Below, one piece after another: positions 1 through 64,000 of a stretch of DNA of 64,000 nucleotides. Every line of letters begins with the position of its first letter. Positions within the stretch are counted from its first letter, which is position 1. The stretch spans positions 138,466-202,465 of the forward strand of contig CALUTE010000001.1 of assembly GCA_944323645.1 (NCBI GenBank), read 5' to 3'. The translations under genes were made by a program, and so were the position numbers. Origin of the DNA: an uncultured Helicobacter sp. (GTDB lineage Bacteria > Campylobacterota > Campylobacteria > Campylobacterales > Helicobacteraceae). The notes under the pieces were generated by a model, which was given only the letters and a program-made list of their open reading frames with translations, did no database searches and was not told the origin of the DNA.

Positions 1-1959
1 TAGCAGTTTTTAACATATTTTGTAGCTTGGGGAGTGTTATATCATTAAGCGTTTGTATGCTCTGTAGCAAAGATTCTTGGCGCGCTTTGAATGTTTTATA
101 AAGTTTTGTATGCAAGAATGCTTGGCGATACTTTTGTGCATAGTCTTGATTATTGAGTGCCATTTCGAGTTGGGGCTTCGTAAAGCCTTGTAACTTTTGT
201 AAAAATATCTGTGCTTCCCTAGCTCGCTTAGTATAATATACTAGCATTGCTGCGCTTTTAGTAATAGTTTGTTGCTTTTTGTGGATATATGCAAATACGT
301 TGGTAATGTACTCTCTATATGCCTTATTAGCTTGTATGGTACAGATTAGTGTATTATCTCTGCCCTTTTTATGTGGAATTTCTTCAATATTAAGAGATTT
401 TGAAAAATAGCAAACATTATTACTGCGTAAAGTCTTTATTTGCATAGTTTGCGCCGTGATATGACTACCATTTGTACAAACAATACGAGCATTGTCTGCA
501 TAGATCTTGGCAGATTCTGCGGTATTTATTATGCACTTTTCACACAACAAAAAACCCCTATGTGTTAGAATCTTGGCATTTGTAGCAAAAATATTAGAAT
601 TATGGTGACTTGCACCATCAAGAGAAAGATAAGAGGCTTTTAACGTGGTATTACTACCAAGCATACCCAAGACATATAGCGTTTTGGCTTCGATATGAAG
701 ATTATCTCCAACCGCATCAACGCTACTATCATCAGAGATGATTCTAAGCTCTATGCCCGCTTCTATTCCGCCAAGTAGAGGTGGTGTAGTAGCAGCATTA
801 TATGATGTGGCAGGTGGCTGAAAAAAAACAAACATATCATTGCAACTATTTGCAGAGCTTATGCTAGAGATATTGGCATTGTCTTTGTTGGAATCTAATA
901 GTTTATGAAAATCTGGTTGCAGCGCTAAATTCTTGTTGGATTCTGCAATATCTTTTTGGCTAGAATCTAAAGAATACACGCGATCTGGTGGTGTGGCATA
1001 TCTAGCAGTATGCTTAGTGTTAAGCGCTATAAAACCTTGTATTTTAGAGTGGTATTGGATTTTATCTGCAAAAACTTGATAATAAATATGCTGCTGGTCT
1101 GTGGGTATAACACGACTAGAAGGGTTCGGTACAGACATATAAACTCCAGCTAGATTCCGCCCTGCCCTGCCCACATCGCCAAACTCATACACGCCAACAA
1201 CTTCATCAACTGCAACACCAAAAAATGCACTCTCAAATTGTTCTATCACAGAGGCATAGTATGCAGAATCTAGTTTAGAATCTTGCTTAGATTCTAAATG
1301 ATGAGAAGTTAGCAAGGTTTGGTAACGCTCTTGTGGTAAAAACACAAAGCGTGCTGGCTTTGGTGGGATAAATAACTCACTCTGTTTAATACAGAAAGAA
1401 TGCTGCTTCGCCTTTGGATCAGATTTGATTTGTGTAAGTATTTCTTGTAAGCGCAAACGGAGGGTTTTTAGGTTACACAAAATAATGCCCTCAAGCGCCA
1501 TAAGCGTTATGATCTCTGTGTAAAAATCTTCAAAGAATTCTGTCTCATCAAACGCGATAAAACTATCATCAAAATGCAACAACACTTTATCCTTATACTC
1601 TGATACCTCAAGAAAAAATGGACACTCGAATTCTTTGGGCACAACAAGCACATCGCAGACTTGCTTAATAGAAAAATGTTGCTGATTATATTGTGCAGAG
1701 ATATCTAGCTGCAAAGCTTCCTCTCTGCTTAAGGGCATAAACTCATTTGCAGTTTTTGTCATAGATTGGGAATTTGCTTGTAAATGCTTACTATGCAGCC
1801 AAGATATACTTTCTTCGGGCGTATCTATACGAACAAACAGCGTAAAATCTTGCACAATACATCGTGTTATACTCGAGTCAATTCCTTGCAATTTACAATG
1901 CTTATGAATACTGGCAGTTATATCCTCACAACCCACAATACAAAATGGCGTAAAAGACA
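1..1959 (-). CDS. Hypothetical protein, 3'-truncated by window edge; possibly DUF342/FapA-like
   Basis: Absent from the supplied ORF track because it runs off the window. My own reverse-complement translation from ATG 1959-1957 (MSFTPFCIVGCEDITAS...) stays open to position 1 (>650 codons). The central part has short repetitive beta-strand-like segments (AKILTHRGFLLCEKCIINTAESAKIYADNARIVCTNGSHITAQTMQIK) followed by a coiled-coil-like tail. The family call is from memory only. Alternative start at ATG 1763. Confidence 0.6.
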
Positions 1960-2079
1960 TTGGGCTTCCCTTGTTATAGACTCTATCTCAACCTTAGGCT
2001 TAAGAGGGTTATTGTTTTATAGTATATCAAACTTCTTTTAGCTACAATCTTCTTAATACTATAACAATTAAGGATATTT

Positions 2080-3555
2080 TTGTTAAAAAAAGCATTTTTT
2101 ACAAATAGTAGTGGTATTTTATGTTCGCGTATTTTTGGGTTTTTACGTGACTTGAGTATGGCAAATATTTTAGGTGCTGGCATTTATAGTGATATCTTTT
2201 TTGTTGCATTCAAATTCCCCAATTTATTTCGCAGAATATTTGGAGAAGGTGCTTTTACGCAGAGCTTTCTACCAAGTTTCATTGCTAGTAGCAAAAAAGG
2301 GGCATTTAGCGTATTAGTATTAGCAATCTTCTCGCTATTTCTGATTGGATTCTGCCTGCTTGTTATGATATTTAGCGGAGGTTTTACGCGACTTTTGGCA
2401 TTAGGATTTGATGCACAACTTATTGAAATCACAAAACCAATCGTAGCTATCCACTTTTGGTATTTATTCCTCGTTTTTATTGTAACTTTTTTGAGTACGC
2501 TTTTGCAGTATAAGCAAAGTTTTTGGGTAAGTGCTTATAACACTGCGCTGCTTAACATTGCGATGATTTGTGCGTTATTTTTGGCACGCAACCAAGAAGA
2601 GTTGGAGATTGTTTATTTTGTTAGCTATGGTGTACTTTTTGGTGGAGTTGCACAGATTTGTTTGCATTTTTATCCTCTCTATCGTTTGGGTTTCGTGCGG
2701 CTATTTTTATGCGGTTTAGGAGAAATAAAAATGGCATTGAATGGGGGTCTTATAAAAATGATATGCGCCACACAAGCCTCCGAAAAAGCTAAGATTCTAG
2801 CATATCGCATACGACTAGACCTAAAAAGATTTTTTACGCAATTTTTTCCAGCAATGCTAGGGAGCTCAACGGCACAGCTCGCCTCATTTGTTGATACATT
2901 GCTTGCCTCATTTTTAGCAAGTGGATCCATTTCGTATTTGTATTATGCAAATCGTATTTTTCAACTCCCACTAGCAATTTTTGCAATTGCCATTTCTACT
3001 GCACTTTTTCCTATGGTAGCAAAGGCAATCAAAGCAAAACAAGAGCAACAAGCGCTTGCAACAATGAAAAATGCATTTTGGTTTCTGCTTAGTATGCTTG
3101 CATTGTGTTCGATTGGGGGCATTATGCTTAGCGACCAAATTATTTGGTTGCTCTATGAACATGGTAAATTCACTCGTTCTGACACACTTGAGAGTGCAGC
3201 AGTATTTAGTGCATATATGATTGGGCTGCTTCCTTTTGGGTGTGCTAGAATCTTTTCTCTTTATCTCTATTCCTACAATGCCCAAGCACTCGCTGCAAAA
3301 ATTTCTGCTATTTCTTTGGGTATAGGAGTGGTGTTTTCTTTGATTTTTATGCAGTTTTTAGGTGCATTTGGGCTAGCTCTTGCTGGAAGTCTAAGTGGGT
3401 TTGTGCTCTTTGGGCTCACAATTAGGGCTTTTGGGCTAAATAAGTTTTGGACTACAATGCGTTCTGCAAAGTATGCATTATATACTATCTTAGCAATTAT
3501 GATTGAAATTATGCTACTACTAGGGTGGCGATATGTCGTGCAGATTCCTACATAA
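2080..3555 (+). CDS. murJ: Lipid II flippase MurJ (MviN)
   Basis: 491-aa polytopic membrane ORF with TTG start. The N-terminus (SRIFGFLRDLSMANILGAGIYSDIFFVAFKFPNLFRRIFGEGAFTQSFLP) is the canonical MurJ/MviN signature. Sits next to cysS as in H. pylori. Confidence 0.93.
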   Translation: MLKKAFFTNSSGILCSRIFGFLRDLSMANILGAGIYSDIFFVAFKFPNLFRRIFGEGAFTQSFLPSFIASSKKGAFSVLVLAIFSLFLIGFCLLVMIFSGGFTRLLALGFDAQLIEITKPIVAIHFWYLFLVFIVTFLSTLLQYKQSFWVSAYNTALLNIAMICALFLARNQEELEIVYFVSYGVLFGGVAQICLHFYPLYRLGFVRLFLCGLGEIKMALNGGLIKMICATQASEKAKILAYRIRLDLKRFFTQFFPAMLGSSTAQLASFVDTLLASFLASGSISYLYYANRIFQLPLAIFAIAISTALFPMVAKAIKAKQEQQALATMKNAFWFLLSMLALCSIGGIMLSDQIIWLLYEHGKFTRSDTLESAAVFSAYMIGLLPFGCARIFSLYLYSYNAQALAAKISAISLGIGVVFSLIFMQFLGAFGLALAGSLSGFVLFGLTIRAFGLNKFWTTMRSAKYALYTILAIMIEIMLLLGWRYVVQIPT

Positions 3556-3583
3556 TGACAACTAAATTATTCAAGGAGAGGTT

Positions 3584-5038: not shown

Positions 5039-5130
5039 TATTGTGGCAAACTCCCACAGACCTAAGCATAGAAAACGTGTGCTATTTAAATTCTTTTGGT
5101 TATAATTCCCTATTCTGATAAAGGCTATTT

Positions 5131-5853: not shown

Positions 5854-5873
5854 TCAAAACAGAAGGAGTATAA

Positions 5874-10477: not shown

Positions 10478-10498
10478 CTCCTTTTATGATAATGTAGC

Positions 10499-20938: not shown

Positions 20939-22084
20939 ATGGGAGAAGCGGCAAAAGGAAAAGTTGGAGGACTAGCAGGTGTTATCGCTGGAAAATCTGC
21001 GATCTGCACCGTTGGCACAGGACATGGGCTAAATTATCGTGGCTATGATATTTATGATCTAGCAAAACACGCGGAGTTTGAGGAGGTAGCCTATTTGCTA
21101 CTAAAGGGCACATTGCCCACCAAAGCGGAGTTGGCGGATTTTAAAGCCGAGCTTATCAAAGCGCGCGCACTGCCCAAAGAAATGCGCGAAGCACTCAAGC
21201 TTTTGCCTAAAGACGCGCATCCAATGGATGTGATGAGGACGGGCTGCTCGATTTTGGGCTGCCTGGAGCAAGAGCACTTGAGCGTAGCAAAAATGAGCTT
21301 CCCAGATCAGCTCAAAATCGGTATTCGTTTGCTTGGGATATTCCCCTCCATTCTACTATTTTGGCATCATTGGCACAAAAGCGGCACAGAGATGGATACA
21401 GAATCTAAGCAAGATTCTATCGGTGGGTATTTCCTAGAAAAACTCCACAACAAAGAGCCAAAAGATCTGTGGGTGCGTGCCATGCATGTGAGCCTTATCC
21501 TCTATGCTGAGCATGAGTTCAACGCCTCGACCTTCACTTCACGCGTGGTGAGTGCGACTCTCTCTGATGTATATTCAGCGATCACTGCAGCGATTGGAGC
21601 GTTGCGAGGACCATTGCATGGTGGAGCAAACGAAGCAGCTATGGAGCTTTTAGAGGAATTCAAAAGCGTGGAGGAAGCCACAAAAGGCATTTATGAAAAG
21701 CTTGCTAATAAAGCTAAGATTATGGGATTTGGGCATCGTGTGTATGTCAAGGCAGATCCACGCAATGTTGTCATCAAAGAGTGGAGCAAAAAACTTGGCG
21801 ATGATGTAGGCGATACGAAATTGCTTTATCCTATTAGTGAGGCGATTGAAAAAATTATGTGGGACGAGAAAAAACTCTTCCCAAATCTTGACTTTTATAG
21901 TGCATCAGCGTATCACTTTATGGGGATTCCGACCTCGTATTTCACGCCGATTTTCATTATGAGTCGCACCAGTGGCTGGCTCGCACATATCTATGAACAA
22001 CGCGCTGATAACAAGCTCATACGCCCAAGCTCAGAATACACAGGACCAGAAAATAAGGCGTATGTGAAAATCGAGGATCGCTAG
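20939..22084 (+). CDS. prpC: 2-Methylcitrate synthase
   Basis: Citrate synthase family (GLNYRGYDIYDLA, GPLHGGANE, GFGHRVY). ATG 20939 preceded by aaaggagaa. The track ORF start at 20882 overlaps prpB and was rejected. Confidence 0.92.
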   Translation: MGEAAKGKVGGLAGVIAGKSAICTVGTGHGLNYRGYDIYDLAKHAEFEEVAYLLLKGTLPTKAELADFKAELIKARALPKEMREALKLLPKDAHPMDVMRTGCSILGCLEQEHLSVAKMSFPDQLKIGIRLLGIFPSILLFWHHWHKSGTEMDTESKQDSIGGYFLEKLHNKEPKDLWVRAMHVSLILYAEHEFNASTFTSRVVSATLSDVYSAITAAIGALRGPLHGGANEAAMELLEEFKSVEEATKGIYEKLANKAKIMGFGHRVYVKADPRNVVIKEWSKKLGDDVGDTKLLYPISEAIEKIMWDEKKLFPNLDFYSASAYHFMGIPTSYFTPIFIMSRTSGWLAHIYEQRADNKLIRPSSEYTGPENKAYVKIEDR

Positions 22085-23915: not shown

Positions 23916-26012
23916 CTAAAACCTATAGCTAACCTCAAACCTTGCATCAATCCCGGGATTTGGCATAGCACTTCTCACCGTAGCATCACTTAGGCGCATT
24001 GTCGCTTCATTTTTAAAGGGGCTTGTTTGTGCAATGTAAAATGTATTAAAGATATTATTTATGCTTAGGCGCATATTTAAACGCCTATTTAATGGTTCCC
24101 AGTTAATATAAAGGTTATGGATACTATATCCTGCTTTATCCACAAATCCAATTTCATCATTATAAATATCATAGCCCTCATAACGAATTCTTTGAGTAAA
24201 TTGGCTAAGCCAAGTAAATTTTAAAGCAAAACGCTCGATTTCATAATGCAAAGAAAGATTATAAATCGTGCCAGAAACCGCGCCAAGCTCCCACGTATCT
24301 TGCAAAAGATAGCCCTTGTATGTAGGAAAGCTTCGCGCAATAGAAGCATAGACTCCAAACCCTTTATAATCCGCGCCAGTACCTCCTTCATAACCAAAAA
24401 TATCCATAGGTGAGCTCATATTGGATCGCACACCAGAATGCGTATGTGTCTCACCCTCATGGTTATGATTACCATCATGGGAATGATCGTGTGCATAGCT
24501 ATTGATAAAGTTTTCAAGTCGCGAATAATATACTGCGAATCGTGCGCAAAATATCTTACCACTAAAGTCCGTATTAAATTCTACATTGTGAATATGTTCA
24601 GGTTTTAAATTTTGCTGAATTAGCACCTCATCTTCACCAAGCAATGTTGCATCACCCGGAAGTGCACCACGTGTTAAATAAGAATACGAAAGCCTAAAAC
24701 TAAGGCTATCAAGCGGCAGATATGTTGTGCTTATGGAAGGAGAGAATCCATTTGTAAGGTGATGGTTGGCATTTTTGTCCATATAGCTAAACACATCATA
24801 ACGACTCTGTGCGCTCAAAATCCAATGTGTACTGGGCATAAAATCTGTTTTGATGAAACCTCCATAAATATGTCCGCTCTCCCTTGCTTTGTTGATAGAG
24901 TTTGGGATAGCGGCTTTATCTGCGACAAAAATACCTTGATAATTTAGTCCATACTCAAGCCCAAAAAAATCAAATTGATTACTAAATCCGAGATTATAGC
25001 CAACATTACTAAAGGCAATATCTTTGCTATTAACCTCACTATGATCACTTGAAGATAAAGAAGATAAAGGCGTTAGATTCAAAGAGCGTTGATTAAAATA
25101 AAGATTGCTTTTTATACCAAGCGCACCTACTTGCTCACCTATATGCTCAAAACCAAGAGAGGCTGTATGATTCCAATTTCTGTGCGCAAAAAGCGTAAGC
25201 ATTCTGTCTGCTAGATTGGTCGCGAATGGCGCAGTTGATGTTTCGTTAAGCCCGCTATAAGACAAAGTAAGTTTGTTGTTGCGCCCTAGATTCTGATTAA
25301 TCTTAAATAGCATACTTTTATTGTTGCTTGATGACCCAGTTACTTTATTGCCATTGCCATCATAGAATCCAAGGATATTTGTTTGATTTACATATAGCAA
25401 TGCATCTGTTTTTGTTGTAGCAAAAAACCCAGCTAGATTTACTCGATACCCCAAATTGCTATACCCTCCAAGCCCTAAAAGAGCACCATATTTTTCACCT
25501 GTTGCGAGAAAATCGCGTGCATCTTTTGTTTGCATACTAATAGAGCCAGCTAGAGCACCTGCACCATTATACACACTGGGCACACCCTTTTGAACAGAAA
25601 TTTGTTTTAGCATAAGGGGATCTATAGTGATATTGCCCTGATGATGAAAAATGTTACCATATTGACTAGCATTATCAATACTCACGCTATAAAGCCTATC
25701 TTCAAGTCCTCGTATATAGACCTTTTGCGATGTTGTATTTGCCCCACCCACGCTAATACTCGGATCGAGTGCAAAAACATCACGCAAGCTTGTTGCCTGA
25801 CGTTCTTGCAAAGACTGCGCAGTCAATGTCGTAGTATTGGCATATTCGTGCTCGCGTAAGCGCTCGCGCTTTGCTTGAGCACGTACAGCAGGAAGAGTCT
25901 TTTCATCCATATCAGTAGAATCTAGCTTCTTAGATTCTGGTTCAGAATCTATTTGTGCATACATAACACCAAACAAAACAATCCATATCAAACAAAACTT
26001 CATTGCCTTCAT
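23916..26012 (-). CDS. TonB-dependent outer-membrane receptor with His-rich loop (metal uptake candidate)
   Basis: About 698 aa from MKAMKFCLIWIVLFGVMYA (signal peptide). Plug-domain-like block (VYIRGLEDRLYSVSIDN). C-terminal ...EVSYRF with terminal Phe. Loop HDHSHDGNHNHEGETHTHSG is encoded at about 24432-24497. Confidence 0.88.
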   Translation of the reverse strand: MKAMKFCLIWIVLFGVMYAQIDSEPESKKLDSTDMDEKTLPAVRAQAKRERLREHEYANTTTLTAQSLQERQATSLRDVFALDPSISVGGANTTSQKVYIRGLEDRLYSVSIDNASQYGNIFHHQGNITIDPLMLKQISVQKGVPSVYNGAGALAGSISMQTKDARDFLATGEKYGALLGLGGYSNLGYRVNLAGFFATTKTDALLYVNQTNILGFYDGNGNKVTGSSSNNKSMLFKINQNLGRNNKLTLSYSGLNETSTAPFATNLADRMLTLFAHRNWNHTASLGFEHIGEQVGALGIKSNLYFNQRSLNLTPLSSLSSSDHSEVNSKDIAFSNVGYNLGFSNQFDFFGLEYGLNYQGIFVADKAAIPNSINKARESGHIYGGFIKTDFMPSTHWILSAQSRYDVFSYMDKNANHHLTNGFSPSISTTYLPLDSLSFRLSYSYLTRGALPGDATLLGEDEVLIQQNLKPEHIHNVEFNTDFSGKIFCARFAVYYSRLENFINSYAHDHSHDGNHNHEGETHTHSGVRSNMSSPMDIFGYEGGTGADYKGFGVYASIARSFPTYKGYLLQDTWELGAVSGTIYNLSLHYEIERFALKFTWLSQFTQRIRYEGYDIYNDEIGFVDKAGYSIHNLYINWEPLNRRLNMRLSINNIFNTFYIAQTSPFKNEATMRLSDATVRSAMPNPGIDARFEVSYRF

Positions 26013-26166
26013 ACTAGCCCCTAAACTTTTATAAAACAACAAATTATAATAAAAACAACTTAGTTGCATATTAAAAATTTAGTTGTTTAAAAAATATGAA
26101 TTTGCAAATATGCAAAGTAATATCTATTTGTTTGCCATAAATTTTGTTATAATGCATAATAAAACT

Positions 26167-30714: not shown

Positions 30715-30905
30715 TTAAACAAGCTTACATTGATTGGATTCTGTCATAATTAGCTTGCAATGCATAGCCTAAACTACCTTCAATTCTATGCTTCAAAATC
30801 TACAAGAAGCACAGGGGATAGTATGTAAGAATTTGTCTCCAAAAGACCAAGAGATTCTAGAATCTACAAGGATAGCTAGAATCTTAACACAAAATAGAAT
30901 TCAAA

Positions 30906-37231: not shown

Positions 37232-37308
37232 GGATCTTTAGCTCAGCTGGTCAGAGCACTCGGCTCATAACCGATTGGTCGTAGGTTCAAATCCTACAAG
37301 ATCCACCA
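37232..37308 (+). tRNA. tRNA with CAT anticodon (elongator Met or lysidine-modified Ile2; resembles Ile2)
   Basis: Hand-folded cloverleaf. Acceptor stem GGATCTT/AAGATCC, D-arm GCTC..GAGC, anticodon loop CTCATAA, T-arm GTAGG-TTCAAAT-CCTAC, encoded CCA. The G1-C72 pair and weak anticodon stem argue against the initiator. The TTGGTCG variable region is like E. coli Ile tRNAs, from memory. Confidence 0.9.
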
Positions 37309-37444
37309 CATTAAACTTTTTATATCTTTCTTTACTTGCAAACTAAACTTCACATTGTTTTAGGGTAATTTCTGAAATTTTTTACTTTAGATAAAAAAAA
37401 TTATTAATAGCTATTAAATATTAACTAATTAATGATATAAATTC

Positions 37445-37481
37445 ACTTGTCCCTGTTTTGCCCACCTAAGCAGGGACAAGT
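37445..37481 (+). other. Perfect 11-bp stem hairpin (GC-rich) in an AT-rich spacer
   Basis: ACTTGTCCCTG (37445-37455) and CAGGGACAAGT (37471-37481), with a 15-nt loop. A second hairpin (CCCACTC...GAGTGGG) follows about 30 nt downstream and is itself followed by a T-rich stretch. Confidence 0.6.
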
Positions 37482-37606
37482 GACAAAAGACTTTTTAAGT
37501 TCCTTTCTGTACCCACTCTCTCCCAAGCCAAGGGAGTGGGCTTTCTCATTACAATTATTTTATGAAACTTTATACTATAATGTTCTTCTCAAATCAAGGA
37601 GTATAT

Positions 37607-50466: not shown

Positions 50467-52179
50467 ATGGATTCTCCGCACAAAAAACAAGGGCGCACAA
50501 AAACAATACCAAAAAACATCATTCCCCTAGAATCTAGCGCACAAATAAACGCCTTGCGCGATGCTTTTGCCAAAAATGGTGCAATTAGTGTTTTTGGCTA
50601 TGGTGTTACGACTAAGCCCATTGTAGCTTTGCTCAATGCAAGAAGCTTTTCTTGCACGATTTATGATGATAAGCTAGCAAATATCAAAGATCACAATGTA
50701 CTGGATTCTATCCTAGAATCTAGTGACAAAAATAGCAAAAGAGCAGCATATACAAATCTTTTTTTATCTCCAAGTGCTTTTTGCAGCGAGGATTCTGCAT
50801 TGGAGATTCTTAGCCCTGGAATCCTACCTACACACCCATATTTTGCACAAGCACACAATGCAATAAGCGAATATGATTTTATTTATAGCCTTTTACGACA
50901 CAAAGATTTACTGCCAATAAATAATACACAAAACACCACACCTTCTCCCATAGCCAATAATCCCGCTTGTGATTGCGCACAAGATGTGATACCTATGATT
51001 TGGATAAGTGGCACTAATGGTAAAACCACAACGACCCAAATGCTCACATTTCTACTCGCTCCTTTTGGCGCACAAGCAGGGGGAAATATCGGCACACCAC
51101 TTGCCACACTTTTCTCACAATGTGCCAGAATCTGGATATTAGAGACAAGCTCTTTCACCCTGCACTATACTAAAACTGCCTACCCAAAAGTGTATTTGCT
51201 GTTGCCTTTGAGCCAAGATCATATTAGCTGGCATAATGGGTTTGAAAACTATGTCGATGATAAGCTTAGCGTGCTAACCCGTATGGATTCTACAACATAC
51301 GCACTCCTCCCAGATTCTGTGCGCACACACCGCTTTGTACGATCCTATCTCGGCAAAGCTGTGTTTTATAAAGATTCTTATGATTTGCTTACATATCTAG
51401 CGCTAGATCGCAAAGCGCTTACCTTTGATGAACCATTTTTGCTTGATGGGCTTGTGGCGCTGTGTGGGGTGGAGATGTTGCACAAAGCCTTACCAAAAGC
51501 TTTGGATAAGAATCTAGATTCTACCAAACTGGATTCTCTGCTAGATTCTCCTGCGCAAAACACAACGCACGATATATCTGCATACTGCGCACATCTCAAC
51601 ACATTCACAATTGGCGCACACAGAATCGAGGAGTTTTATGAGCTAGAATCTGATAGTACAAAATGGCTGTGGGTTGATGACTCTAAAGGCACAAACATTG
51701 ATGCGACTTTGCAAGCTATCAAACGATATCACGATAGGGCATTATTTTTGATTCTAGGTGGTGATGATAAAGGTGCAGATTGTGAGGCAATTTTTGTGCT
51801 GCTTGCAGGGCTTTTTTCAAATCCCACACCAACAACAACAAACAATCCCACCATAGCACCAAGTGTGCAGATTTTTACTATAGGAAGCAACGAAAAAAAG
51901 CTCCTAGCCTTCGCTCAACAATACCAAATAAATGCCATACAATGCAGCATACTACAAAATGCAGTATTTTCGATAAAAAATGCGCGCCAAAACCTGCTTG
52001 CACTCCTAGAATCTAGTAACTCTACACTCTCAAAAAATGCCATAAAAAGCACTGTATCAGAAACATTTGTCGGGCTTTTATCGCCAGCAGCAGCAAGTCT
52101 TGACCAATTTAGCTCCTACAAAGAACGTGGAGAGTTGTTTAAACAGTATGTCAAAAGTTCGCTGCAACCCAAACAATAA
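50467..52179 (+). CDS. murD: UDP-N-acetylmuramoylalanine--D-glutamate ligase, unusually long form
   Basis: 570 aa. Mur ligase P-loop (ISGTNGKTTTTQML) and a position after mraY support MurD. Several low-complexity insertions (see findings). Confidence 0.85.
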   Translation: MDSPHKKQGRTKTIPKNIIPLESSAQINALRDAFAKNGAISVFGYGVTTKPIVALLNARSFSCTIYDDKLANIKDHNVLDSILESSDKNSKRAAYTNLFLSPSAFCSEDSALEILSPGILPTHPYFAQAHNAISEYDFIYSLLRHKDLLPINNTQNTTPSPIANNPACDCAQDVIPMIWISGTNGKTTTTQMLTFLLAPFGAQAGGNIGTPLATLFSQCARIWILETSSFTLHYTKTAYPKVYLLLPLSQDHISWHNGFENYVDDKLSVLTRMDSTTYALLPDSVRTHRFVRSYLGKAVFYKDSYDLLTYLALDRKALTFDEPFLLDGLVALCGVEMLHKALPKALDKNLDSTKLDSLLDSPAQNTTHDISAYCAHLNTFTIGAHRIEEFYELESDSTKWLWVDDSKGTNIDATLQAIKRYHDRALFLILGGDDKGADCEAIFVLLAGLFSNPTPTTTNNPTIAPSVQIFTIGSNEKKLLAFAQQYQINAIQCSILQNAVFSIKNARQNLLALLESSNSTLSKNAIKSTVSETFVGLLSPAAASLDQFSSYKERGELFKQYVKSSLQPKQ

Positions 52180-52187: not shown

Positions 52188-54890
52188 ATGAGTTATGATC
52201 CTAAGGCAATAGAAAAAAAAATCTATACACTTTGTAAGGAGCGAGGATATTTCGAGATAGAAGGAAATGCACCAATCGCCCATAACGACAAATATTTTTC
52301 ACTAATGATGCCGCCCCCAAATGTTACTGGTGTGCTACACATAGGACATGCGCTAACTTTTTCACTTCAAGATATTATCACGCGTTATAAGCGTATGCAA
52401 GGGTTTATCACGCTTTATCAGCCCGGGCTTGATCACGCAGGTATTGCAACACAAAATGTCGTAGAAAAACGTCTGCTTGAGCGTGGTATCCGCAAAGAAG
52501 ACATAGGACGTGAGGCATTCATTCAAAAGGTATGGGAGTGGAAAGAAGAATCTGGAGGGAAGATTTTAGAGCAAATGGAAGCGCTTGGCATTACCCCAGC
52601 GTGGTCACGCACACGTTTTACGATGGATAGCGGATTGCAAAATGCAGTGCGTGAAGCGTTTGTTACTTGGTATGAAAAAGGGTTTATTTATCAGGGGGAT
52701 TATATGGTGAATTGGTGCACACACGATGGCGCACTCTCTGATATTGAAGTAGAATATAACCAACAAAATACAAATCTATACCATTTGCGCTACCATCTTG
52801 CCAAAGCTTCGCAAGATTCTACTAGAGAACCTTGCGAATATCTTGTTGTAGCAACGACAAGACCAGAAACATTTTTTGGTGATAGTGCGGTTATGGTACA
52901 TCCTTCAGATTCTCGCTATGCGCATCTTATTGGGCAAGAAGTTGTGCTACCTCTTATTGGGCGCAAGATTCCTATTATCTGTGATGAGAGCGTGGATATG
53001 GAATTTGGGACAGGGGTGGTAAAAGTTACACCCGCTCACGATATAAATGACTATGAAGTTGGTAAAAAGCACAAACTAGAATCTCTTGTGATTTTTGATG
53101 AGAAGGGTATTTTTAATGAATATGCCACAGGATTTAAGGGACGTGAGCGACTTGAAGCACGAAAAGATATTGTGCAGGCATTACAAGATTGTGGTGCGAT
53201 AGAAAAAATCGAGCCCTACACCAACCAAGTGGGAGTATGCTATCGATGTGGTAATATCATCGAGCCTTATATTTCTAAACAATGGTTTATTGATGCAAAA
53301 ATCGCTACAAATACAATCCAGAAAGTCAATGCAAGTAAGCAAAAAGCAGATGAAGGCGGGCATTTCTATCCTGCTTCTTGGCTGAATAATTTTAATGCGT
53401 GGATGCGCGATCTGCGTCCTTGGTGTATTTCAAGACAGTTGTGGTGGGGACATAGGATTCCAATTTGGTATTGTCAAAGCCCCTCTTGTAACCATACTTT
53501 CGCCTCAAAAAATGAAGTGGAGAATGTATGTCCAAAATGTGGGGGAAAAGTCGTGCAAGATAATGATGTGCTTGATACTTGGTTTAGCTCTGGACTTTGG
53601 GCATTTAGTACGCTTGGCTGGGGGAATAAACAAGAATCTAGCAATACTTATCAACAACAAGATCTTGAACATTTCTATCCTAATTCCTTGCTAATTACGG
53701 GGTTTGATATTTTGTTTTTCTGGGTTGCAAGAATGTTATTTAGTGGCGAATCATTGCTTGGCAAACTTCCTTTTAAAGATATTTATTTGCACGCACTTGT
53801 GCGTGATGAGCATGGGCAAAAAATGAGCAAATCAAAAGGCAACGCGATCGATCCTCTTGAAATGATTGAAGAATTTGGGGCAGATTCTCTACGTTTTTCT
53901 TTGGCATATTTGTGTGCGCAAGGGCGCGATGTGCGACTTTCTCGGACACAGCTTGAAATTTCCAAAAACTTCGCCAATAAGCTTTATAATGCCACACAAT
54001 TTTTATTATTATACGCAAAGCAAGCTGATAGCGGTTTTAGTGGGTTTTTAGAGCGCAATGACTTAAACACTTATAGTACGCCGCTTGGACGTTATGCCAA
54101 ATCACGTCTTAATACCGCGACAAAAGAAATGGTTGAAGCACTTGAAAACTACCGCTTCAACGATGGTGCAAGCGTAGTATATCGATTTTTGTGGGGAGAA
54201 TTTTGTGATTGGTGCATTGAGCTTGCCAAAGCGCAAAAAGAATCCATAAACGAGCTTGGAAGCGTGCTTATGGAAGGGCTAAAACTTTTGCACCCTTATA
54301 TGCCTTTTGTAACAGATGCGCTCTATCATCTGCTTATTGGCAAAGATATTGAACAGAGCGAATCAATTATGATTGCGCGCTTTCCTAGTGATTATAGTAA
54401 TGATAGCGCACTTGAAGCGGAGTTTGATCGCATAAAAGATGCTATCATCTCCTTGCGCCGTGCCAAAGCACTCATTGAGCTTGCCAACAAACCCATTGCC
54501 TGCGCGTATGTTGTGGCACATTTTGATGACAAGCCACGCGCCCTAGAATCTATCCAAAAACTCGCGCGCTGCGAGCGTATAGAGCTACTAGAATCTAATG
54601 CAAGCAATTTAGATTCTATGGACAAAGAGTGTGTAGTAGATATTAGCACATATACAAAAAGCTACATTCCACTAAAAGATATTGATCTTTCACAAATCAT
54701 AGCACGCCTCAATACACAAGGCACAAAACTCGCAAAAGAAATCACCAAGCTAGAAGGAATGCTTGGAAATGAAAAATTCCGCGCAAATGCACCAAAACAA
54801 GTGTTAGAATCCAATCAAAATGCACTAGAAGAAGTGCGTGCTAAATACCAAAAAATTCAAGAGCAACGTAAAGCCTTTGGTATAGAGTAG
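52188..54890 (+). CDS. valS: Valine--tRNA ligase
   Basis: 900 aa. PPNVTGVLHIGHA (HIGH), KMSKSKGN (KMSKS), and a C-terminal coiled coil. Confidence 0.97.
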   Translation: MSYDPKAIEKKIYTLCKERGYFEIEGNAPIAHNDKYFSLMMPPPNVTGVLHIGHALTFSLQDIITRYKRMQGFITLYQPGLDHAGIATQNVVEKRLLERGIRKEDIGREAFIQKVWEWKEESGGKILEQMEALGITPAWSRTRFTMDSGLQNAVREAFVTWYEKGFIYQGDYMVNWCTHDGALSDIEVEYNQQNTNLYHLRYHLAKASQDSTREPCEYLVVATTRPETFFGDSAVMVHPSDSRYAHLIGQEVVLPLIGRKIPIICDESVDMEFGTGVVKVTPAHDINDYEVGKKHKLESLVIFDEKGIFNEYATGFKGRERLEARKDIVQALQDCGAIEKIEPYTNQVGVCYRCGNIIEPYISKQWFIDAKIATNTIQKVNASKQKADEGGHFYPASWLNNFNAWMRDLRPWCISRQLWWGHRIPIWYCQSPSCNHTFASKNEVENVCPKCGGKVVQDNDVLDTWFSSGLWAFSTLGWGNKQESSNTYQQQDLEHFYPNSLLITGFDILFFWVARMLFSGESLLGKLPFKDIYLHALVRDEHGQKMSKSKGNAIDPLEMIEEFGADSLRFSLAYLCAQGRDVRLSRTQLEISKNFANKLYNATQFLLLYAKQADSGFSGFLERNDLNTYSTPLGRYAKSRLNTATKEMVEALENYRFNDGASVVYRFLWGEFCDWCIELAKAQKESINELGSVLMEGLKLLHPYMPFVTDALYHLLIGKDIEQSESIMIARFPSDYSNDSALEAEFDRIKDAIISLRRAKALIELANKPIACAYVVAHFDDKPRALESIQKLARCERIELLESNASNLDSMDKECVVDISTYTKSYIPLKDIDLSQIIARLNTQGTKLAKEITKLEGMLGNEKFRANAPKQVLESNQNALEEVRAKYQKIQEQRKAFGIE

Positions 54891-54910
54891 AATCTACTAG
54901 GGATAGCACA

Positions 54911-55922: not shown

Positions 55923-56360
55923 ATGAAAAAAATTGCATTAAGTGTTGCACTTGCAGGTGCTTTAGTGAGTGGAGTGTTTGCGGAAGCCAATAAACAAACA
56001 GGTTGCGGTCTAGGGTCATACCTCATCGATCAAGAAGGGCTTGTATGGTATGTACTGCAATATACAACAAACAACTCTTCTGGAACACAAACATTCGGTA
56101 TTTCTTCGGGAACACTTGGTTGCAAAGAAGCAAAACTTGTTATGGATTCAAGGGTGCAAGAATTTGTCGCTTCCAATATGGACGCACTTTCTAAAGAAAT
56201 CGCACAAGGCAAAGGCGAATCGCTCGATACGCTTGTAGAACTTCTTAATGTAGCTGATAAAAAAGCTTTTAAAGTTGCCCTTCAAGAAAACTACAATAAA
56301 CTCTACACAAGCAAGGATGCGGAAATGGCAGATGTGCTTGATAATGTAGCACAACTCTAA
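55923..56360 (+). CDS. DUF3015-like secreted protein
   Basis: 145 aa with a signal peptide (ALAGALVSGVFA). The GCGLGS...GTQTFGISSGTLGC pattern is recalled for DUF3015. Confidence 0.65.
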   Translation: MKKIALSVALAGALVSGVFAEANKQTGCGLGSYLIDQEGLVWYVLQYTTNNSSGTQTFGISSGTLGCKEAKLVMDSRVQEFVASNMDALSKEIAQGKGESLDTLVELLNVADKKAFKVALQENYNKLYTSKDAEMADVLDNVAQL

Positions 56361-56369
56361 TCCCTCTTT

Positions 56370-56402
56370 CTAGATTCTGCCATAGAATCTAGCCCTTTTT
56401 TT
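56370..56402 (+). terminator. Rho-independent terminator built from an inverted pair of the AGANTCT motif
   Basis: CTAGATTCT (56370-56378), loop GCCAT, AGAATCTAG (56384-56392), then CCC plus T7 (56396-56402). Lies 10 nt after the stop of the preceding gene. Confidence 0.8.
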
Positions 56403-56417
56403 AGCACACTTTGTCTA

Positions 56418-58370: not shown

Positions 58371-58595
58371 CCACATTAAAACCACTCACCACCATTTAAG
58401 CAAAATCAAAAACACAATCACAACACAGAATCTATGCTAGATTCTAGCTTGGCTGCTTACTATCGCTAAGATTTTGCGCTCCAAGGTGGCATAAATTTTC
58501 TACAATATACGTGGCATATTAAGTAGATTCCAAACATTAGCGCGCTAGAATCTTGTATCGCGTAGAATCTTATCGCTTAGTCTAGGGTGCTTACA

Positions 58596-59510: not shown

Positions 59511-59554
59511 AAACAACCTATAATACCAACTCTAAAATTACTAAAGGAGCTAGT

Positions 59555-60763
59555 ATGATGCAAGAAAAATTCAAAACATTTGTCGCACGCACACAAAGCT
59601 TACCCGATTACAAAGAACCACTTGGGTTTGGCATAGCACGCTTGGAATTTGGGCAAAAAAGTGGTGCAACTCTTAGCGCGACATATCCTCTGCTAAATTG
59701 GAAAGGAGAGAATCTAGGGAGCTATGCGGTGTTTTTTGAGGCAATGCAGTGTGGTGAGATTATAAGCGAGAGTGAGAGCGAAAAAGTTGTCGCAATTAAT
59801 CAAGAATTTGTAGCAAAGGCATTAGAGCTGTATGAGCCATTTTTAGCAGAATCGCTTAATAACAAAAACACGCACAAAAATATCCAAGTCGCGCTTGAAC
59901 TAAACAGAGCCCTCGCGCGAGGCGAGCTATTTGCGCCAAATGGCAAGGCACGCTACCATTTTTGTGTACTCTACCAAGATAGTAAATGTGCAAGTGTTGA
60001 GAGTGCATATATGAAACTTCTTGCCCTCTCACTTGGCAAAGCTCCTTTGCGCTCGTTGAATTTAGATGGAATCTTTGGGCTCTTGCAAAATGTCGCTTGG
60101 AGTGGCAACACACCTTATGAGCTAGAATGGTTACGCGACAATGAAATCGAACTAAAAATGCGTGGTGAGCTACCAAATATTGATTTTGTTGATAAATTTC
60201 CGCGCTACCTTATGCAAGTACTACCGCAATACGACAATATCCGCCTCCTAGATTCTGCTAAAACGCGCTTTGGAGCGTATCTTGGAAGCGGTGGCTATAC
60301 ACAAATGCCCGGTGCAAGCTATGTGAATTTCAACGCAGGCGCGCTTGGAGCGTGTATGAATGAAGGGCGTATTAGCTCAAGCGTAGTTGTTGGTGAAGGA
60401 AGCGATATTGGTGGCGGAGCGAGTATTTTGGGTGTGCTAAGCGGTGGAAACAGCGAGCCAATCAGTATTGGAAAAAACTGCCTGCTTGGCGTGAATAGCT
60501 CAACAGGCATCAGCCTTGGAGATGGGTGCATTGTCGATGGTGGTATTGCGGTGCTTGCTGGGACTATCTTTGCGATTGAGCGCGCAGAAGCCGAGAAGAT
60601 AGCTCAAATCAACGAAGGCTTCAATATTCACGATAATGGCTTATACAAAGGGCGCGATCTCTCTGGAAAAAATGGTATCCACTTCCGCCAAGACGCAAAA
60701 AGCGGCAAAATGATAGCCTTTAGAAGTAATAGAAAAATTGAGCTAAACCAAGCACTGCATTGA
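59555..60763 (+). CDS. dapD: 2,3,4,5-Tetrahydropyridine-2,6-dicarboxylate N-succinyltransferase (long epsilonproteobacterial form)
   Basis: About 402 aa from MMQEKF after aaaggag. C-terminal hexapeptide-repeat left-handed beta-helix (VVVGEGSDIGGGASILGVLSGG...IGKNCLLGVNSSTGISLGDGCIVDGG). Confidence 0.8.
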   Translation: MMQEKFKTFVARTQSLPDYKEPLGFGIARLEFGQKSGATLSATYPLLNWKGENLGSYAVFFEAMQCGEIISESESEKVVAINQEFVAKALELYEPFLAESLNNKNTHKNIQVALELNRALARGELFAPNGKARYHFCVLYQDSKCASVESAYMKLLALSLGKAPLRSLNLDGIFGLLQNVAWSGNTPYELEWLRDNEIELKMRGELPNIDFVDKFPRYLMQVLPQYDNIRLLDSAKTRFGAYLGSGGYTQMPGASYVNFNAGALGACMNEGRISSSVVVGEGSDIGGGASILGVLSGGNSEPISIGKNCLLGVNSSTGISLGDGCIVDGGIAVLAGTIFAIERAEAEKIAQINEGFNIHDNGLYKGRDLSGKNGIHFRQDAKSGKMIAFRSNRKIELNQALH

Positions 60764-61067
60764 TTTAAGATTCTAAAGCAGATTCTAAAAAGGTGGCGTA
60801 ATGCAATTATTGCAAAATAAATACAAAGCAAAATACAAGCCTAGCCTTTTTAGATTCTAAGACAAAATCCAACATATCTCAATGCTAGATGTATGACTAC
60901 TTAAAACTGGAATCTTTTGTGTATTTAGTGGTTATTTAGAAGGGAGTACGCCAGATTATAACCCATAGCTAGCAAGAGGTAGCACATAAATCAAAGCCTC
61001 TTAAAATGACACCAAATAAGCACCAAGATTTTGTTATAATTTCTCAAAATTACTCAAAGGTTTTGTT

Positions 61068-62555
61068 TTGACTTTTAGTACTCAAGCATCTTCTATACGC
61101 CCTTATGTGCTTGTGATTTGCTGTATCCTCGTAGCATTAAGCGTGGCAATACTGCCGTTTTGCTTTAGCTATATTTCAATCAAACTCCCTGTGAATCTGC
61201 TTTTTATCGCGCTTGGGCTGTTTGTGATAGTGTATGCACGCTCAATCAATATGCAGGAGTTTAAAGCAATTTGGCTTGTGCTTGTGTGTTTGATTCTTGT
61301 GATAGGCATAGCCTATCTTTCACTCTACTTTGCATACAATATCGGAGCAACCAAGCAAGCTATACGACAGTACTTGCTAGAGCCAAGTCTGTTCTTGCTG
61401 ATGAGTTATCTTATTGTAAGGCGACTAAACGACAAAGAGCTTATGCTATTTTTTGTACTGCTTTGTGTGGCGCTGTGCTATCACCCCTTAGTTACTTTGT
61501 ATGATTTTTTTAGCTCAAAAGCGTTTGCTAAAAGTGGCTTTAACACCATAGGCTATTATCGTGCAATGTTGCCGCACTACCATACTCCAGCAACAGTGTA
61601 TGCGTTTTATTTGCTTGTTACGCTTGGAATGAGTTTATCACTTGCTATTTTTATGCGAGGTGTTTGGCGATTGGCAGCAGTTGGGTTTGTGCTGCTTTGT
61701 TTTGGAGCAATCATCGCAAATGGTGGAAGATTTGCGCTTTTATCAGCACTTGTTATACTCCTTAGCCCTCTTTTGCTTTATAGTTACACACACAAGCGCG
61801 CTATTGTACTAGGTGTTTTTGTGGCATTGTGTGTAGGGTTTGGTGCATTGTATGCAGTTAGTGAAAAATGGGGTGCGCGCTATAATTTTCATTCTATGAT
61901 AAATAATTTCTACAGCATTTGGAACACACCCCCTGCTGAAATGGGTAAGTATAACAAAGGCTGCAAGGCTACCAACTGCTCACCACATTCTCTTGATAAG
62001 CCTTCAGACATTTCTATGGAATACTCAAGTCTATCAAGAATCTCTATGCTCAAATCTAGCATTCTTGCTATTTTAGAAAACCCCTTGCGCCCCAATGGCT
62101 TTCATTTCCAGCAATTTCCTTATAATATACAAAACATCTTTCCACTAGATAGCATAAACCACCCTTTCCCTATTGCCTCTAAGGGAGGTGAGCGTATCTT
62201 TCCGCACGCACACAACCACAACCACATTGTATCTTTTTGGTTTGAGCTTGGAGCAATTGGGTTTCTTTGTGTTGCGCTAGTTGTGTGGGTTTTGCTGCGC
62301 AATCTTTATACTTTGCATATCCCACTTACACACCCTCACCAAGCCAGAATCTCTCCGCTTCGTGCGTGTATGCTAAGTGGTATTGGTTTTAGTATCGTAG
62401 GGCTTGTGGTAGCAAATATTTTTGATTGTATCCCGGTGCGTGATGGGCATTTGATATTGTTTTTGCTTTTTGGTACTATGCTTGCACTACAACACCCTGC
62501 CAACATACAATCTTCAAAGGATAACTATGCTACAAACAATCAAACAGCGTTATGA
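61068..62555 (+). CDS. O-antigen ligase/polymerase (Wzy_C domain) family membrane protein
   Basis: 495 aa with TTG start and >=10 TM helices. A large periplasmic loop is followed by HAHNHNHIVSFWFELGAIGF, resembling the WaaL/Wzy_C H-x-HN...E-G-G signature. Confidence 0.7.
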   Translation: MTFSTQASSIRPYVLVICCILVALSVAILPFCFSYISIKLPVNLLFIALGLFVIVYARSINMQEFKAIWLVLVCLILVIGIAYLSLYFAYNIGATKQAIRQYLLEPSLFLLMSYLIVRRLNDKELMLFFVLLCVALCYHPLVTLYDFFSSKAFAKSGFNTIGYYRAMLPHYHTPATVYAFYLLVTLGMSLSLAIFMRGVWRLAAVGFVLLCFGAIIANGGRFALLSALVILLSPLLLYSYTHKRAIVLGVFVALCVGFGALYAVSEKWGARYNFHSMINNFYSIWNTPPAEMGKYNKGCKATNCSPHSLDKPSDISMEYSSLSRISMLKSSILAILENPLRPNGFHFQQFPYNIQNIFPLDSINHPFPIASKGGERIFPHAHNHNHIVSFWFELGAIGFLCVALVVWVLLRNLYTLHIPLTHPHQARISPLRACMLSGIGFSIVGLVVANIFDCIPVRDGHLILFLLFGTMLALQHPANIQSSKDNYATNNQTAL

Positions 62556-63600
62556 CCTCCTAACAAATAAAGTTTTCACCCACCGCTACATAAAACGCAA
62601 CAACGAACAATTACTTAATCTCATAGGCTTTGTAGTGCTGTATAATGAAGGGGGGGGGGATTCACAAATTGCTAGAATCTTACGTAAGATTCTAGCGCGA
62701 TTTATTCGTTCTTGTTTGAAACGTGTTGGTAAGTTGTATTTTAAGGCGAGAGTGTTATTTGGGTTTGTGGATATGCCACAGCTAGAAATTGTACTAACGA
62801 CACGATGTTCTTTGCGCTGTGAGTCTTGTAGTAATCTTATGCAATATTTTGACACATCACACCATTTTACCACGAGTTTCGCGCTTATCAAAAACGATAT
62901 AGACACCTTGCTTAAACATATCTCAAGCGTTCGGGTGCTTCGTGTGCTTGGTGGTGAGCCACTTCTTTTTAAAGAATTACCACAGGTTATGCATTATCTT
63001 GCTTCTAAAAAACAAATAAAAGCAATAGAATTAATCACTAATGCTACGATTCCATTTTCAAAAGATTTATTAGAGTCATTGTGCTATAAAAAAACACGTG
63101 TGATTATTTCAGATTATAGTGCTAATGTTGAGTTAAAGCCTATTCTTAGACAAGAAGTCATTATCAAATCCTTGCAACAAAAGGGTGTGAAGTATATTTT
63201 CTATCATAGTGATAGTCTTTGGCGCGATACAGGACAGATTTATAAACGCAATCGCTCCAAAGAACTCATCAGAAAAAACTTCCTTGCTTGCGATATTCCC
63301 TGTGTTACTTTGATTGGGGCAAGTCATAGCGCGCAAGAAACGCAAAATGGCAAATTATTTGGCGGGATATTTATCTGTGCCTTAGCAAGCTCGCTTATCA
63401 AACTACGATCCACTCAAGAATTTGAGGGAGATTTTGTACGTTTAGATTCTGTGCAACTCTCTAGTGATATTTTGCGGTTTTATGCGCAAGACTTTTTTAA
63501 AGCTTGTGATTATTGCCCTAATAAATGGGAAGAATCTAAACCTATTCCTGTGGCATTACAGACAAAGAAAACTTTGAAGTTGGAGAATCCACACTGCTAG
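62527..63600 (+). CDS. Radical SAM protein (function unknown) carrying an in-frame G10 tract
   Basis: CX3CX2C motif (TTRCSLRCESCSN) and a C-terminal Cys cluster (ACDYCPNKW). ATG 62527 follows aaggataa and overlaps the upstream gene by 29 nt. The G10 encodes GGG(D). Confidence 0.75.
   Translation: MLQTIKQRYDLLTNKVFTHRYIKRNNEQLLNLIGFVVLYNEGGGDSQIARILRKILARFIRSCLKRVGKLYFKARVLFGFVDMPQLEIVLTTRCSLRCESCSNLMQYFDTSHHFTTSFALIKNDIDTLLKHISSVRVLRVLGGEPLLFKELPQVMHYLASKKQIKAIELITNATIPFSKDLLESLCYKKTRVIISDYSANVELKPILRQEVIIKSLQQKGVKYIFYHSDSLWRDTGQIYKRNRSKELIRKNFLACDIPCVTLIGASHSAQETQNGKLFGGIFICALASSLIKLRSTQEFEGDFVRLDSVQLSSDILRFYAQDFFKACDYCPNKWEESKPIPVALQTKKTLKLENPHC
62650..62659 (+). repeat. Homopolymeric G10 tract inside the radical SAM CDS (currently in-frame, ON)
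   Basis: gaa-gggggggggg-att, counted from the printed blocks. Confidence 0.85.
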
Positions 63601-63890
63601 ATTATACGCTAAATCTTGTTGGATTTGGGTGGGGTCTGCCAATTCTGCGCTTAGAATCTAAAAATTTTTAGGATCTGGGTTATCGCCTCAATGTGATGAT
63701 TTTATTCATTCTGAACTTGTACTGGCAAATGAAAAATCTACCAAACAATCAAGGCTTACCTAGAATCTAAAAAGTATTTGCTTCAAAAGCTCAATAATTA
63801 ATCTCTACCGGACTCCATTTTTATTTCTTTTCTTAGATTTTGCTTTACTAGAATACTATTTGCACTCAAAATCGCAACTATAATTTTTCG

Positions 63891-63903
63891 TTTTTTTTTT
63901 TTT
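63891..63903 (+). repeat. Homopolymeric T13 tract abutting a putative extended -10 promoter
   Basis: T run 63891-63903, immediately followed by gTGcTAGAAT (TG 63905-63906, TAGAAT 63908-63913). This is about 32 nt upstream of the ATG at 63945 with RBS aaggag. Confidence 0.6.
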
Positions 63904-63944
63904 GTGCTAGAATACGATCCACTACAACAAGGAGTATAGATTCT

Positions 63945-64000
63945 ATGTGCAAAGAGACAGCTACTCTTGCTATGACCCCTAGCCTTGTCTCTATCATTAT
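63945..64000 (+). CDS. 5' end of an unidentified CDS (runs off window)
   Basis: ATG 63945 lies 8 nt after aaggag and the frame is open to the window end (MCKETATLAMTPSLVSII...). Too short to identify. Confidence 0.4.
   Translation, partial: MCKETATLAMTPSLVSII

Follow-up and report, generated by a model that had tools for sequence, protein, structure and literature searches.

What question does a chromosome pose when one short palindrome recurs in nearly every gene and spacer? The stretch of DNA studied here, 64,000 nucleotides from an uncultured Helicobacter sp. of the Helicobacteraceae (GenBank assembly GCA_944323645.1, contig CALUTE010000001.1, positions 138,466 to 202,465 of the forward strand), raises it in this form: is the repeated word a product of composition and codon usage, or is it kept in place by a force that acts on the DNA? 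The whole stretch is called the window below. An original prediction, made from the sequence alone, described the word as AGANTCT and proposed that positive drive has amplified it. We find that the unit is RGAWTCY, a palindrome iterated at high frequency throughout the genome, where it is actively maintained at the level of the DNA.

Abundance and form of the palindrome

The word AGANTCT occurs 159 times in the window, against 14.2 ± 3.1 copies (maximum 23) in dinucleotide-preserving shuffles. The count of 140-150 copies given in the original prediction corresponds to the 149 copies of AGAWTCT (82 AGAATCT and 67 AGATTCT), and its N centre was mistaken: the centre is W, and just 10 of the 159 copies are the C/G-centred AGASTCT. 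Markov models of order 0, 1, 2 and 3 expect 12.8, 10.0, 13.9 and 23.6 copies of AGAWTCT. Together with the shuffles they predict 10-24 copies, and the palindrome is overall about ten times commoner than chance would give. The expected number rises to 58.5 at order 4 and to 140.5 at order 5, where the match to the observed 149 is trivial, because the 6-mers of this maximal-order model already contain the motif. AGAWTCT is present at 2.3 copies per kb (about one per 430 bp) and RGAWTCY at 3.25 per kb (one per 308 bp), with observed-to-expected ratios (O/E) of about 6-15.

The excess survives when codon usage and amino acid sequence are held constant. Using 48 long open reading frames as gene calls and 200 synonymous-codon shuffles within each gene, coding AGAWTCT was counted 120 times against 21.1 ± 4.3 expected (maximum 35; z = 23; O/E 5.7), so that the over-representation passes the codon-preserving check that the original prediction had named beforehand. 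The non-coding DNA contains 29 copies in 6.35 kb (4.57 per kb), compared with 2.08 per kb in coding sequences. Spacers are thus about 2.2-fold denser, much as had been predicted (about 2-fold). Roughly 80% of the AGAWTCT copies are intragenic and evenly spread; the gaps between copies are Poisson-like (coefficient of variation 1.02), and nearly every gene is hit, as are the spacers. A search for motif-poor islands, made as a test of amelioration, found none of significance, either in the window or in the 21 related loci that were scanned. TGATGA/TCATCA, which ranks second among the enriched words, is a coding artefact that arises from xxT-GAT-GAx on the sense strand.

The exact form of the motif was defined from the 264 GAWTC sites in the window. 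These have R..Y flanks in 208 cases and Y..R flanks in only 9. On a second-order background, the GAWTC core has an O/E of 3.2 and GASTC one of 1.18. Avoidance of GANTC as a restriction site was considered and rejected, as the depletion of GASTC relative to the mononucleotide expectation vanishes on the second-order background. The RGAWTCY sites comprise 149 with A..T flanks, 51 with mixed flanks and 8 with G..C flanks, which fits independent half-sites with 84% A and suggests palindromic half-sites of the kind that a symmetric dimeric reader protein would recognise. The next flanking position is biased to T..A, with T in 40 of 58 intergenic half-sites, and the position beyond it is flat. The unit is accordingly RGAWTCY with the preferred form T-AGAWTCT-A, a palindrome of 7-9 bp with an information content of about 12-15 bits. 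The consensus TTAGANTCTAA of the original prediction was thus wrong in two respects, the second being the extended flank TTAG..CTAA: the bias extends by a single further position, and just 4 copies of TTAGAWTCTAA are present in the window. Since the flanks hold ≤0.2 bit beyond ±1 and the counts of 8- to 11-mers are those predicted from their sub-words, the word is not part of a dispersed element of the REP or MITE type, and the single dispersed repeat family that had been named as the competing case is not what underlies it.

Pairs of motifs spaced exactly 12 bp apart, with a gap of 5 bp, number 10 in the window against 0.68 expected; 7 are inverted and capable of forming hairpins, and 3 are direct. 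They are located at 1265-1295, 21400-21418, 25932-25950, 38023-38041, 50703-50721, 51531-51549, 56372-56390, 58427-58445, and 60768-60786. This spacing was kept out of the motif definition because it is weak in the other A-type species (5 against 2.3 expected).

The motif has also left its mark on the proteins. Its main reading frame, xxA-GAW-TCT, encodes x-[E/D]-S and accounts for 79 copies, while xAG-AWT-CTx ([QKE][NI]L) accounts for 22 and AGA-WTC-Txx (R[IF]x) for 12, which bears out the frames noted earlier, LES/LDS among them. Tripeptide contexts whose amino acids permit the motif carry AGAWTCT in 113 of 247 cases (46%), compared with 17 expected from codon usage. LDS (29 against 6.8 expected, 4.3-fold) and LES (27 against 8.0, 3.4-fold) are the two most over-represented tripeptides in the window. 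At invariant D/E-S positions of ValS, the motif is present in some species and absent in others, and most sites arise through synonymous change at pre-existing positions.

Could the excess nevertheless be an artefact of codon usage or of the make-up of amino acids or bases, or have been left behind by one dispersed repeat or one low-complexity family? Part of the signal does reside in the preferred codons TCT, GAT, GAA, and CTA, and the O/E is close to 1 under the maximal-order Markov model. The shuffles already refute this explanation, however, and with spacers richer in the motif than genes, flanks that are not conserved, and an enrichment that recurs across species of 27-48% GC and is absent from H. 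pylori at about 40% GC, we give it practically no credence. There is strong support for a positive force at the level of the DNA, as opposed to an effect of codon usage, of composition or of a repeat family, and the positive drive of the original prediction stands on the synonymous shuffles, the flank data and the saturation of permissive sites.

Distribution among relatives and retention of sites

The distribution of the motif was examined in valS-centred loci from 80 genomes (3-23 kb each, 22-23 kb where the contig allowed), with the O/E of the GAWTC core computed over a masked second-order background. The core is enriched (O/E 3.2-6.6) in the window and in four enterohepatic Helicobacter groups that range from 27 to 48% GC. 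Enrichment is absent from H. pylori (O/E 0.84) and from one clade of three Helicobacter species, and the core is depleted in Campylobacter (O/E 0.33 over three loci from metagenome-assembled genomes, MAGs). The comparison with related Helicobacter, which the original prediction had proposed, thus shows that the core is enriched in most of the enterohepatic lineages sampled and that the flanks vary. A-rich flanks are found in the window, H. bilis and several MAGs, and A/G-mixed flanks in H. canis, Helicobacter sp. CLO-3, H. turcicus, and the H. ganmani group. In the ValS tree, the trait spans most of the enterohepatic clade and is weak in a few members, which implies several gains or losses. 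The ValS protein of the window is ≤70% identical to that of any species representative, while identical ValS proteins are encoded on metagenome contigs. These two contigs are 99.99-100% identical to the window and yielded no usable single-nucleotide differences between strains.

Several loci in this set have features of their own. The most divergent dialect was observed in two Helicobacteraceae MAGs (L025 and L062), where GAWTC is enriched about 5-fold with C/G flanks (GCGAATC, CGAWTCG). The mixed words AGAWTCC and GGAWTCT are as frequent as, or more frequent than, predicted from independent half-sites in CLO-3, H. canis, and H. turcicus (mixed against A..T counts of 76 against 73 in CLO-3 and 45 against 16 in H. 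turcicus), and the preferred word may be asymmetric in these three species. In another Helicobacteraceae MAG, Gsp477_bin128 (L039:1-22559, GC 51%), the over-represented words resemble the cyanobacterial palindrome HIP1, with 75 copies of CGATCG against 21.8 expected and 16 of GCGATCGC against 2.9. Hyperabundant palindromes thus seem to differ between lineages of the Helicobacteraceae.

Site retention was scored for seven pairs of species whose DNA is 81-95% identical, using neighbouring 7-mers in the same codon phase as controls; an eighth pair, the C-flanked L025 and L062 (83% identity), was scored as NGAWTCN only. Between 48 and 94% of the RGAWTCY sites are still a motif in the partner species, compared with 22-77% identity of the phase-matched control 7-mers, and the substitutions per site within the motif are about 0.3-1.0 times those of the controls, mostly 0.4-0.8 times. 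Among distant relatives, the same-codon ratios are 1.09-1.23 times chance, so that synonymous codons are essentially randomised. The occupancy of doubly permissive positions is correlated, with a pooled odds ratio of 3.9 and odds ratios of 7.5-25 in the five closest species. Together, these results show that a DNA-level, lineage-specific and site-retaining force acts on RGAWTCY.

A triple of Helicobacteraceae MAGs (L027, L033 and L040) revealed 26 losses and 10 gains of sites in the two lineages with the lowest GC content (27-31%), several of the losses being G-to-A or C-to-T changes, and the maintaining force appears to have weakened there. One-step neighbours of the motif are mostly mildly enriched (1.1- to 3-fold), for example AGAATTT with an O/E of 1.8 and AAAATCT with 1.6, as expected from the decay of an abundant motif. 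A signature of very-short-patch (VSP) repair was sought and rejected, because the C-to-T neighbour is not depleted.

Individual sites and their gene context

The window is an ordinary housekeeping segment from the chromosome of an enterohepatic (gut) Helicobacter, with murJ, cysS, lon, nrfAH, eno, recA, prpBCD, nifSU, gap, argBD, fabF, mraY, murD, and valS among its genes. The individual sites of the original prediction, four triplets, an overlap with the valS stop codon and two inverted pairs, were all found. The first triplet (1265/1277/1289, spanning 1265..1295 with 12-bp spacing) lies inside an open frame of 662 codons on the minus strand (2-1987), which runs off the left end of the window and has no Pfam match at E ≤ 1e-8. 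This frame, and not a spacer, holds the seven AGAWTCT copies at 71-1289, the triplet among them. The triplet at 25917/25932/25944 (25917..25950) is placed inside a TonB-dependent receptor gene on the minus strand (23916-26069), where neighbouring copies could pair as hairpins. The triplet at 30852/30859/30878 (30852..30884) is located in a spacer between convergent genes, and its two abutting copies at 30852-30865 form a perfect 14-bp palindrome, AGATTCTAGAATCT.

The fourth triplet (51509/51516/51543, spanning 51509-51549) falls within murD (50467..52179, plus strand), the densest gene of the window, with 11 AGAWTCT and 17 RGAWTCY sites in a protein of 570 amino acids. Two abutting copies at 51509-51522 again form a perfect 14-bp palindrome, AGAATCTAGATTCT. 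The copies in murD encode tripeptides of the LDS/LES type, mostly within segments that look variable or inserted. Residues 175-563 alone align to the 441-position murD model; the remaining segments abound in LDS/LES encoded by the motif, which at the DNA level may have promoted these insertions or colonised them. The neighbouring valS gene (52188..54890, plus strand), which was used for the comparison of sites across species, contains 9 AGAWTCT and 13 RGAWTCY sites, and its TAG stop codon at 54888-54890 overlaps a copy at 54889-54895 (T-AGAATCT).

The original prediction also proposed that inverted pairs form hairpins or terminators, which is convincing in one case. The pair at 56372/56384 (56370..56402, plus strand) consists of CTAGATTCTGCCATAGAATCTAG followed by CCCTTTTTTT, with a 10-bp stem and a 3-nt loop. 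It begins 10 bp past the stop codon of a DUF3015 gene (55923-56360), was flagged by the terminator scan and looks like an intrinsic terminator. The other pairs lack a T-run or lie within genes. The pair at 58427/58439 (58427..58445), located in a spacer, could form a hairpin of -8.6 kcal/mol in its context; it has no T-run and was not flagged by the terminator scan. Another pair at 62670..62697 (plus strand), with a 12-bp stem, lies inside the coding sequence at 62470-63600.

A scan of viral sequences for the inverted motif pair returned mostly chance single matches. A T4-like viral contig (L155:1-6089, IMGVR_UViG_3300020392_000744, GC 37%), which encodes a T4 baseplate protein and a cytochrome P450, contains 17 dispersed AGAWTCT copies in 6.1 kb (2.8 per kb), and a second viral sequence with a T4 gp8-like gene (L111) contains 19 copies in 13.5 kb; both were selected by the scan for the inverted pair, so their counts are subject to ascertainment bias. 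In the window itself, a tRNA-Met gene (37232-37308) is followed by a gene for a 915-residue fusion of an AAA_33 kinase, a calcineurin-like phosphoesterase and a T4 Rnl1-type RNA ligase (37232-40309 with the tRNA gene). The fusion protein has a weak match to bacterial Pnkp (TIGR04075) and looks like a Pnkp-like RNA repair enzyme.

Methylation, precedents and possible causes

The core of the motif is the target of adenine methyltransferases of the CcrM/M.HinfI type, and a relative within Helicobacter is known to methylate GANTC. Single-molecule real-time sequencing of H. typhlonius identified G(m6A)NTC (m6A, N6-methyladenine) as by far the dominant methylated motif, with 99.7% of its 20,546 strand instances modified (PMC4705304). 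This corresponds to 10.7 GANTC strand instances per kb, compared with 9.4 in the window. GATC is present at 4.4 per kb in the window and at 0.6 per kb in H. typhlonius, which is a different species. Methylation of GANTC in H. pylori is also mentioned, by way of a citation, in PMC4705304. The methyltransferase site that the original prediction had offered as an alternative thus gains support from H. typhlonius, but methylation alone is insufficient as an explanation, because H. pylori methylates GANTC and yet has a GAWTC O/E of 0.84.

It is improbable that the motif simply reflects the site preference of an orphan GANTC/GAWTC adenine methyltransferase that serves epigenetic regulation or, as for CcrM, cell-cycle control. 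Homologs of CcrM that are specific for GAWTC exist (PMC8919816), and these, the full methylation of GANTC in H. typhlonius and the higher density in spacers would be in line with such a role. However, a GANTC system of the CcrM type would be marked by a free choice of centre base and a depleted site, and methylated GANTC/GAWTC is under-represented more than 2-fold in the Alphaproteobacteria (PMC8919816). The window enriches the site, provided that its centre is W and its flanks are R/Y, a flank specificity foreign to GANTC enzymes. The even spread of mostly intragenic copies is not a regulatory placement either, and H. pylori methylates GANTC without enrichment. The W centre and R/Y flanks of the enriched word, taken with the depletion of methylated sites in the Alphaproteobacteria, imply an additional reader protein.

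Two hyperabundant palindromes, neither of them named in the original prediction, provide closer precedents than the classical uptake sequences. HIP1 (GCGATCGC) of the cyanobacteria is likewise a short palindrome, with one copy every few hundred bp inside and outside coding sequences, and is not part of a longer repeat. It is built around a methyltransferase target, is conserved between species beyond the neutral expectation and has lineage-specific derivatives, such as TCGATCGA, that keep the core and alter the flanks (PMC4390886, PMC5861425). The motif described here shares these traits, its core GAWTC probably being a methyltransferase target as in H. typhlonius. The two differ in phylum, sequence and degree: the word in the Campylobacterota window is AGAWTCT rather than HIP1 proper, has an odd length and a W centre, carries its presumed m6A target in GAWTC and not in CGATCG/GATC, and is enriched about 6- to 12-fold, compared with 15- to 300-fold as reported for HIP1. 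The function of HIP1, long unknown, is now tied to transformation: methylated HIP1 raises natural transformation in Synechococcus PCC 7002 in a methylation-dependent manner, and the presence of HIP1 correlates with that of the DNA-uptake machinery (bioRxiv 10.1101/2024.09.10.611283).

The second precedent belongs to the same bacterial order. Among the m6A motifs of C. jejuni YH002, RAATTY predominates, with 30,196 instances (PMC7785942), as GANTC does in H. typhlonius, and methylated RAATTY is the uptake signal of C. jejuni according to the summary in bioRxiv 10.1101/2024.09.10.611283. RGAWTCY shares with it the A/T centre, the R..Y flanks and the hyperabundance. The sequences differ, and the dependence of uptake on the motif and on an orphan methyltransferase (CtsM) has been demonstrated for C. 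jejuni only. Between the Campylobacter and Helicobacter lineages, the one enrichment excludes the other, with RAATTY counted 150 times in the window against 190.9 expected. In the locus of an uncultured Campylobacter MAG (L029:1-22604, GC 45.5%), RAATTY occurs 202 times against 72.4 expected (2.8-fold), AAATTT 158 times against 32 (4.9-fold) and TAAATTTA 27 times against 1.5.

The original prediction had drawn its parallel to the DNA uptake sequences (DUS) of Neisseria and the uptake signal sequences (USS) of the Pasteurellaceae, and this is apt in part. Shared are the excess over the whole genome, at about one copy per kb within genes as well as between them, the lineage dialects, the placement in permissive frames, the proteome imprint and the spacer excess, and as inverted DUS/USS pairs act as terminators, the window has one terminator-like inverted pair. 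However, DUS and USS are non-palindromic, unmethylated words of 9-12 nt with a much higher information content and a demonstrated uptake bias, which in Neisseria involves the ComP receptor. As the palindrome of 7-9 bp and about 12-15 bits is no such word, the motif was not assigned to this class.

We favour, with a probability of about 0.4, an explanation in which RGAWTCY is a methylated tag of self-DNA, which molecular drive amplifies in the course of gene transfer. The GAWTC core would be m6A-methylated by a GANTC/GAWTC methyltransferase, as shown in the relative H. typhlonius. A lineage-specific protein that reads the core together with the R/Y flanks would then favour motif-bearing, methylated DNA from the same species in homologous transfer, at the step of uptake, of protection from nucleases, or of recombination. 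Fragments that carry the motif would be fixed more often, possibly with selection added to this molecular drive. The outcome would be the state of the window, with about half of the permissive sites filled, a proteome imprint, denser spacers, and occasional terminator pairs, while the flanks would drift between lineages as the recognising protein changes. Such a tag would account for the saturation, the proteome imprint, the spacer excess, the terminator-like pair, the dialects, and the reciprocal pattern in Campylobacter.

Several observations weigh against the self-DNA tag. The gene annotation of the window includes no methyltransferase or competence gene, although no homology search aimed at methyltransferases was made. 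Natural competence is not established for the enterohepatic Helicobacter, and H. hepaticus was reported to lack comB (PMC3895553). The motif is short, palindromic and low in information compared with DUS/USS, the data across species rest on loci around one gene, valS, and the excess of losses over gains in the two low-GC lineages means that the force is not uniform. Finally, retention above controls is equally expected from a repair bias that restores the motif.

Two further explanations have to be weighed against the self-DNA tag. The motif could be the binding site of an abundant protein that organises the chromosome or reads its methylation, in the nucleoid, in replication or in segregation, and be kept by selection for chromosome structure, which we regard as unlikely. 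The retention of sites above phase-matched controls and their uniform, Poisson-like spread over all genes fit this explanation, as do the independent half-sites suggestive of a symmetric dimer and the excess of 12-bp-spaced pairs, and the conservation of HIP1 and its periodicity, on a scale of 10-90 kb, have been read in this way (PMC5861425). Structural proteins, however, rarely drive codon saturation of about 46% or an imprint on the proteome, the fast turnover of flanks and the complete absence from sister lineages would be unusual for core architecture, and other species show little of the 12-bp spacing.

Rather less probable still is that the motif is a functionless, neutral by-product of biased repair, either VSP-like or linked to a nickase, that turns near-misses into RGAWTCY. 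The dense filling of synonymous sites and of spacers, the lineage-specific strength and the apparent decay where the force was lost are compatible with it, as is retention by continual restoration. For HIP1, a neutral alternative was considered by Xu et al. 2018 (PMC5861425), and a link to methyl-directed mismatch repair was proposed by Elhai 2015 (PMC4390886). A biased repair process would, however, have to act on seven positions simultaneously, and none of the one-step neighbours is depleted as a VSP substrate would be. To our knowledge, H. pylori lacks MutS1, MutL, and MutH, which makes methyl-directed repair unlikely. No 5-methylcytosine motif was called in H. typhlonius, where this modification was undetectable (PMC4705304).

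We also put forward, more tentatively than the self-DNA tag itself, that the enterohepatic Helicobacter, and beyond them other Helicobacteraceae, may carry a hitherto unrecognised family of methylated palindromic self-DNA tags, comprising the RGAWTCY dialects and, in other lineages, CGAWTCG and CGATCG, which a lineage-specific factor would read during natural transformation or recombination. The motif seems to be undescribed for Helicobacter: the papers that were searched, with subscription-only ones outside the scope, did not mention AGAWTCT, RGAWTCY, AGANTCT or an enrichment of GAWTC in Helicobacter.

If such a family exists, RGAWTCY would be the first signal of uptake or recombination specificity in Helicobacter. 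H. pylori serves as the textbook example of competence in which no uptake sequence is involved. With a sister clade whose permissive sites are saturated by a palindrome that forms dialects and is probably methylated, the discrimination between DNAs in Helicobacter could be put to a direct test, since there are motif-rich species that can be cultured, such as H. bilis and H. canis. The Campylobacter RAATTY, the cyanobacterial HIP1, and RGAWTCY would then form one class, in which the target of a methyltransferase is amplified by molecular drive. The 30-year-old problem of HIP1 would gain a second and a third independent example outside the cyanobacteria, in organisms with small genomes and available genetics. 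Motif density offers a simple genomic marker of the lineage and perhaps of barriers to gene flow, and the motif visibly shapes proteins, as seen from the excess of LDS/LES and the motif-rich extra segments of MurD. The finding also bears on the design of transformation substrates for pathogens that are poorly tractable.

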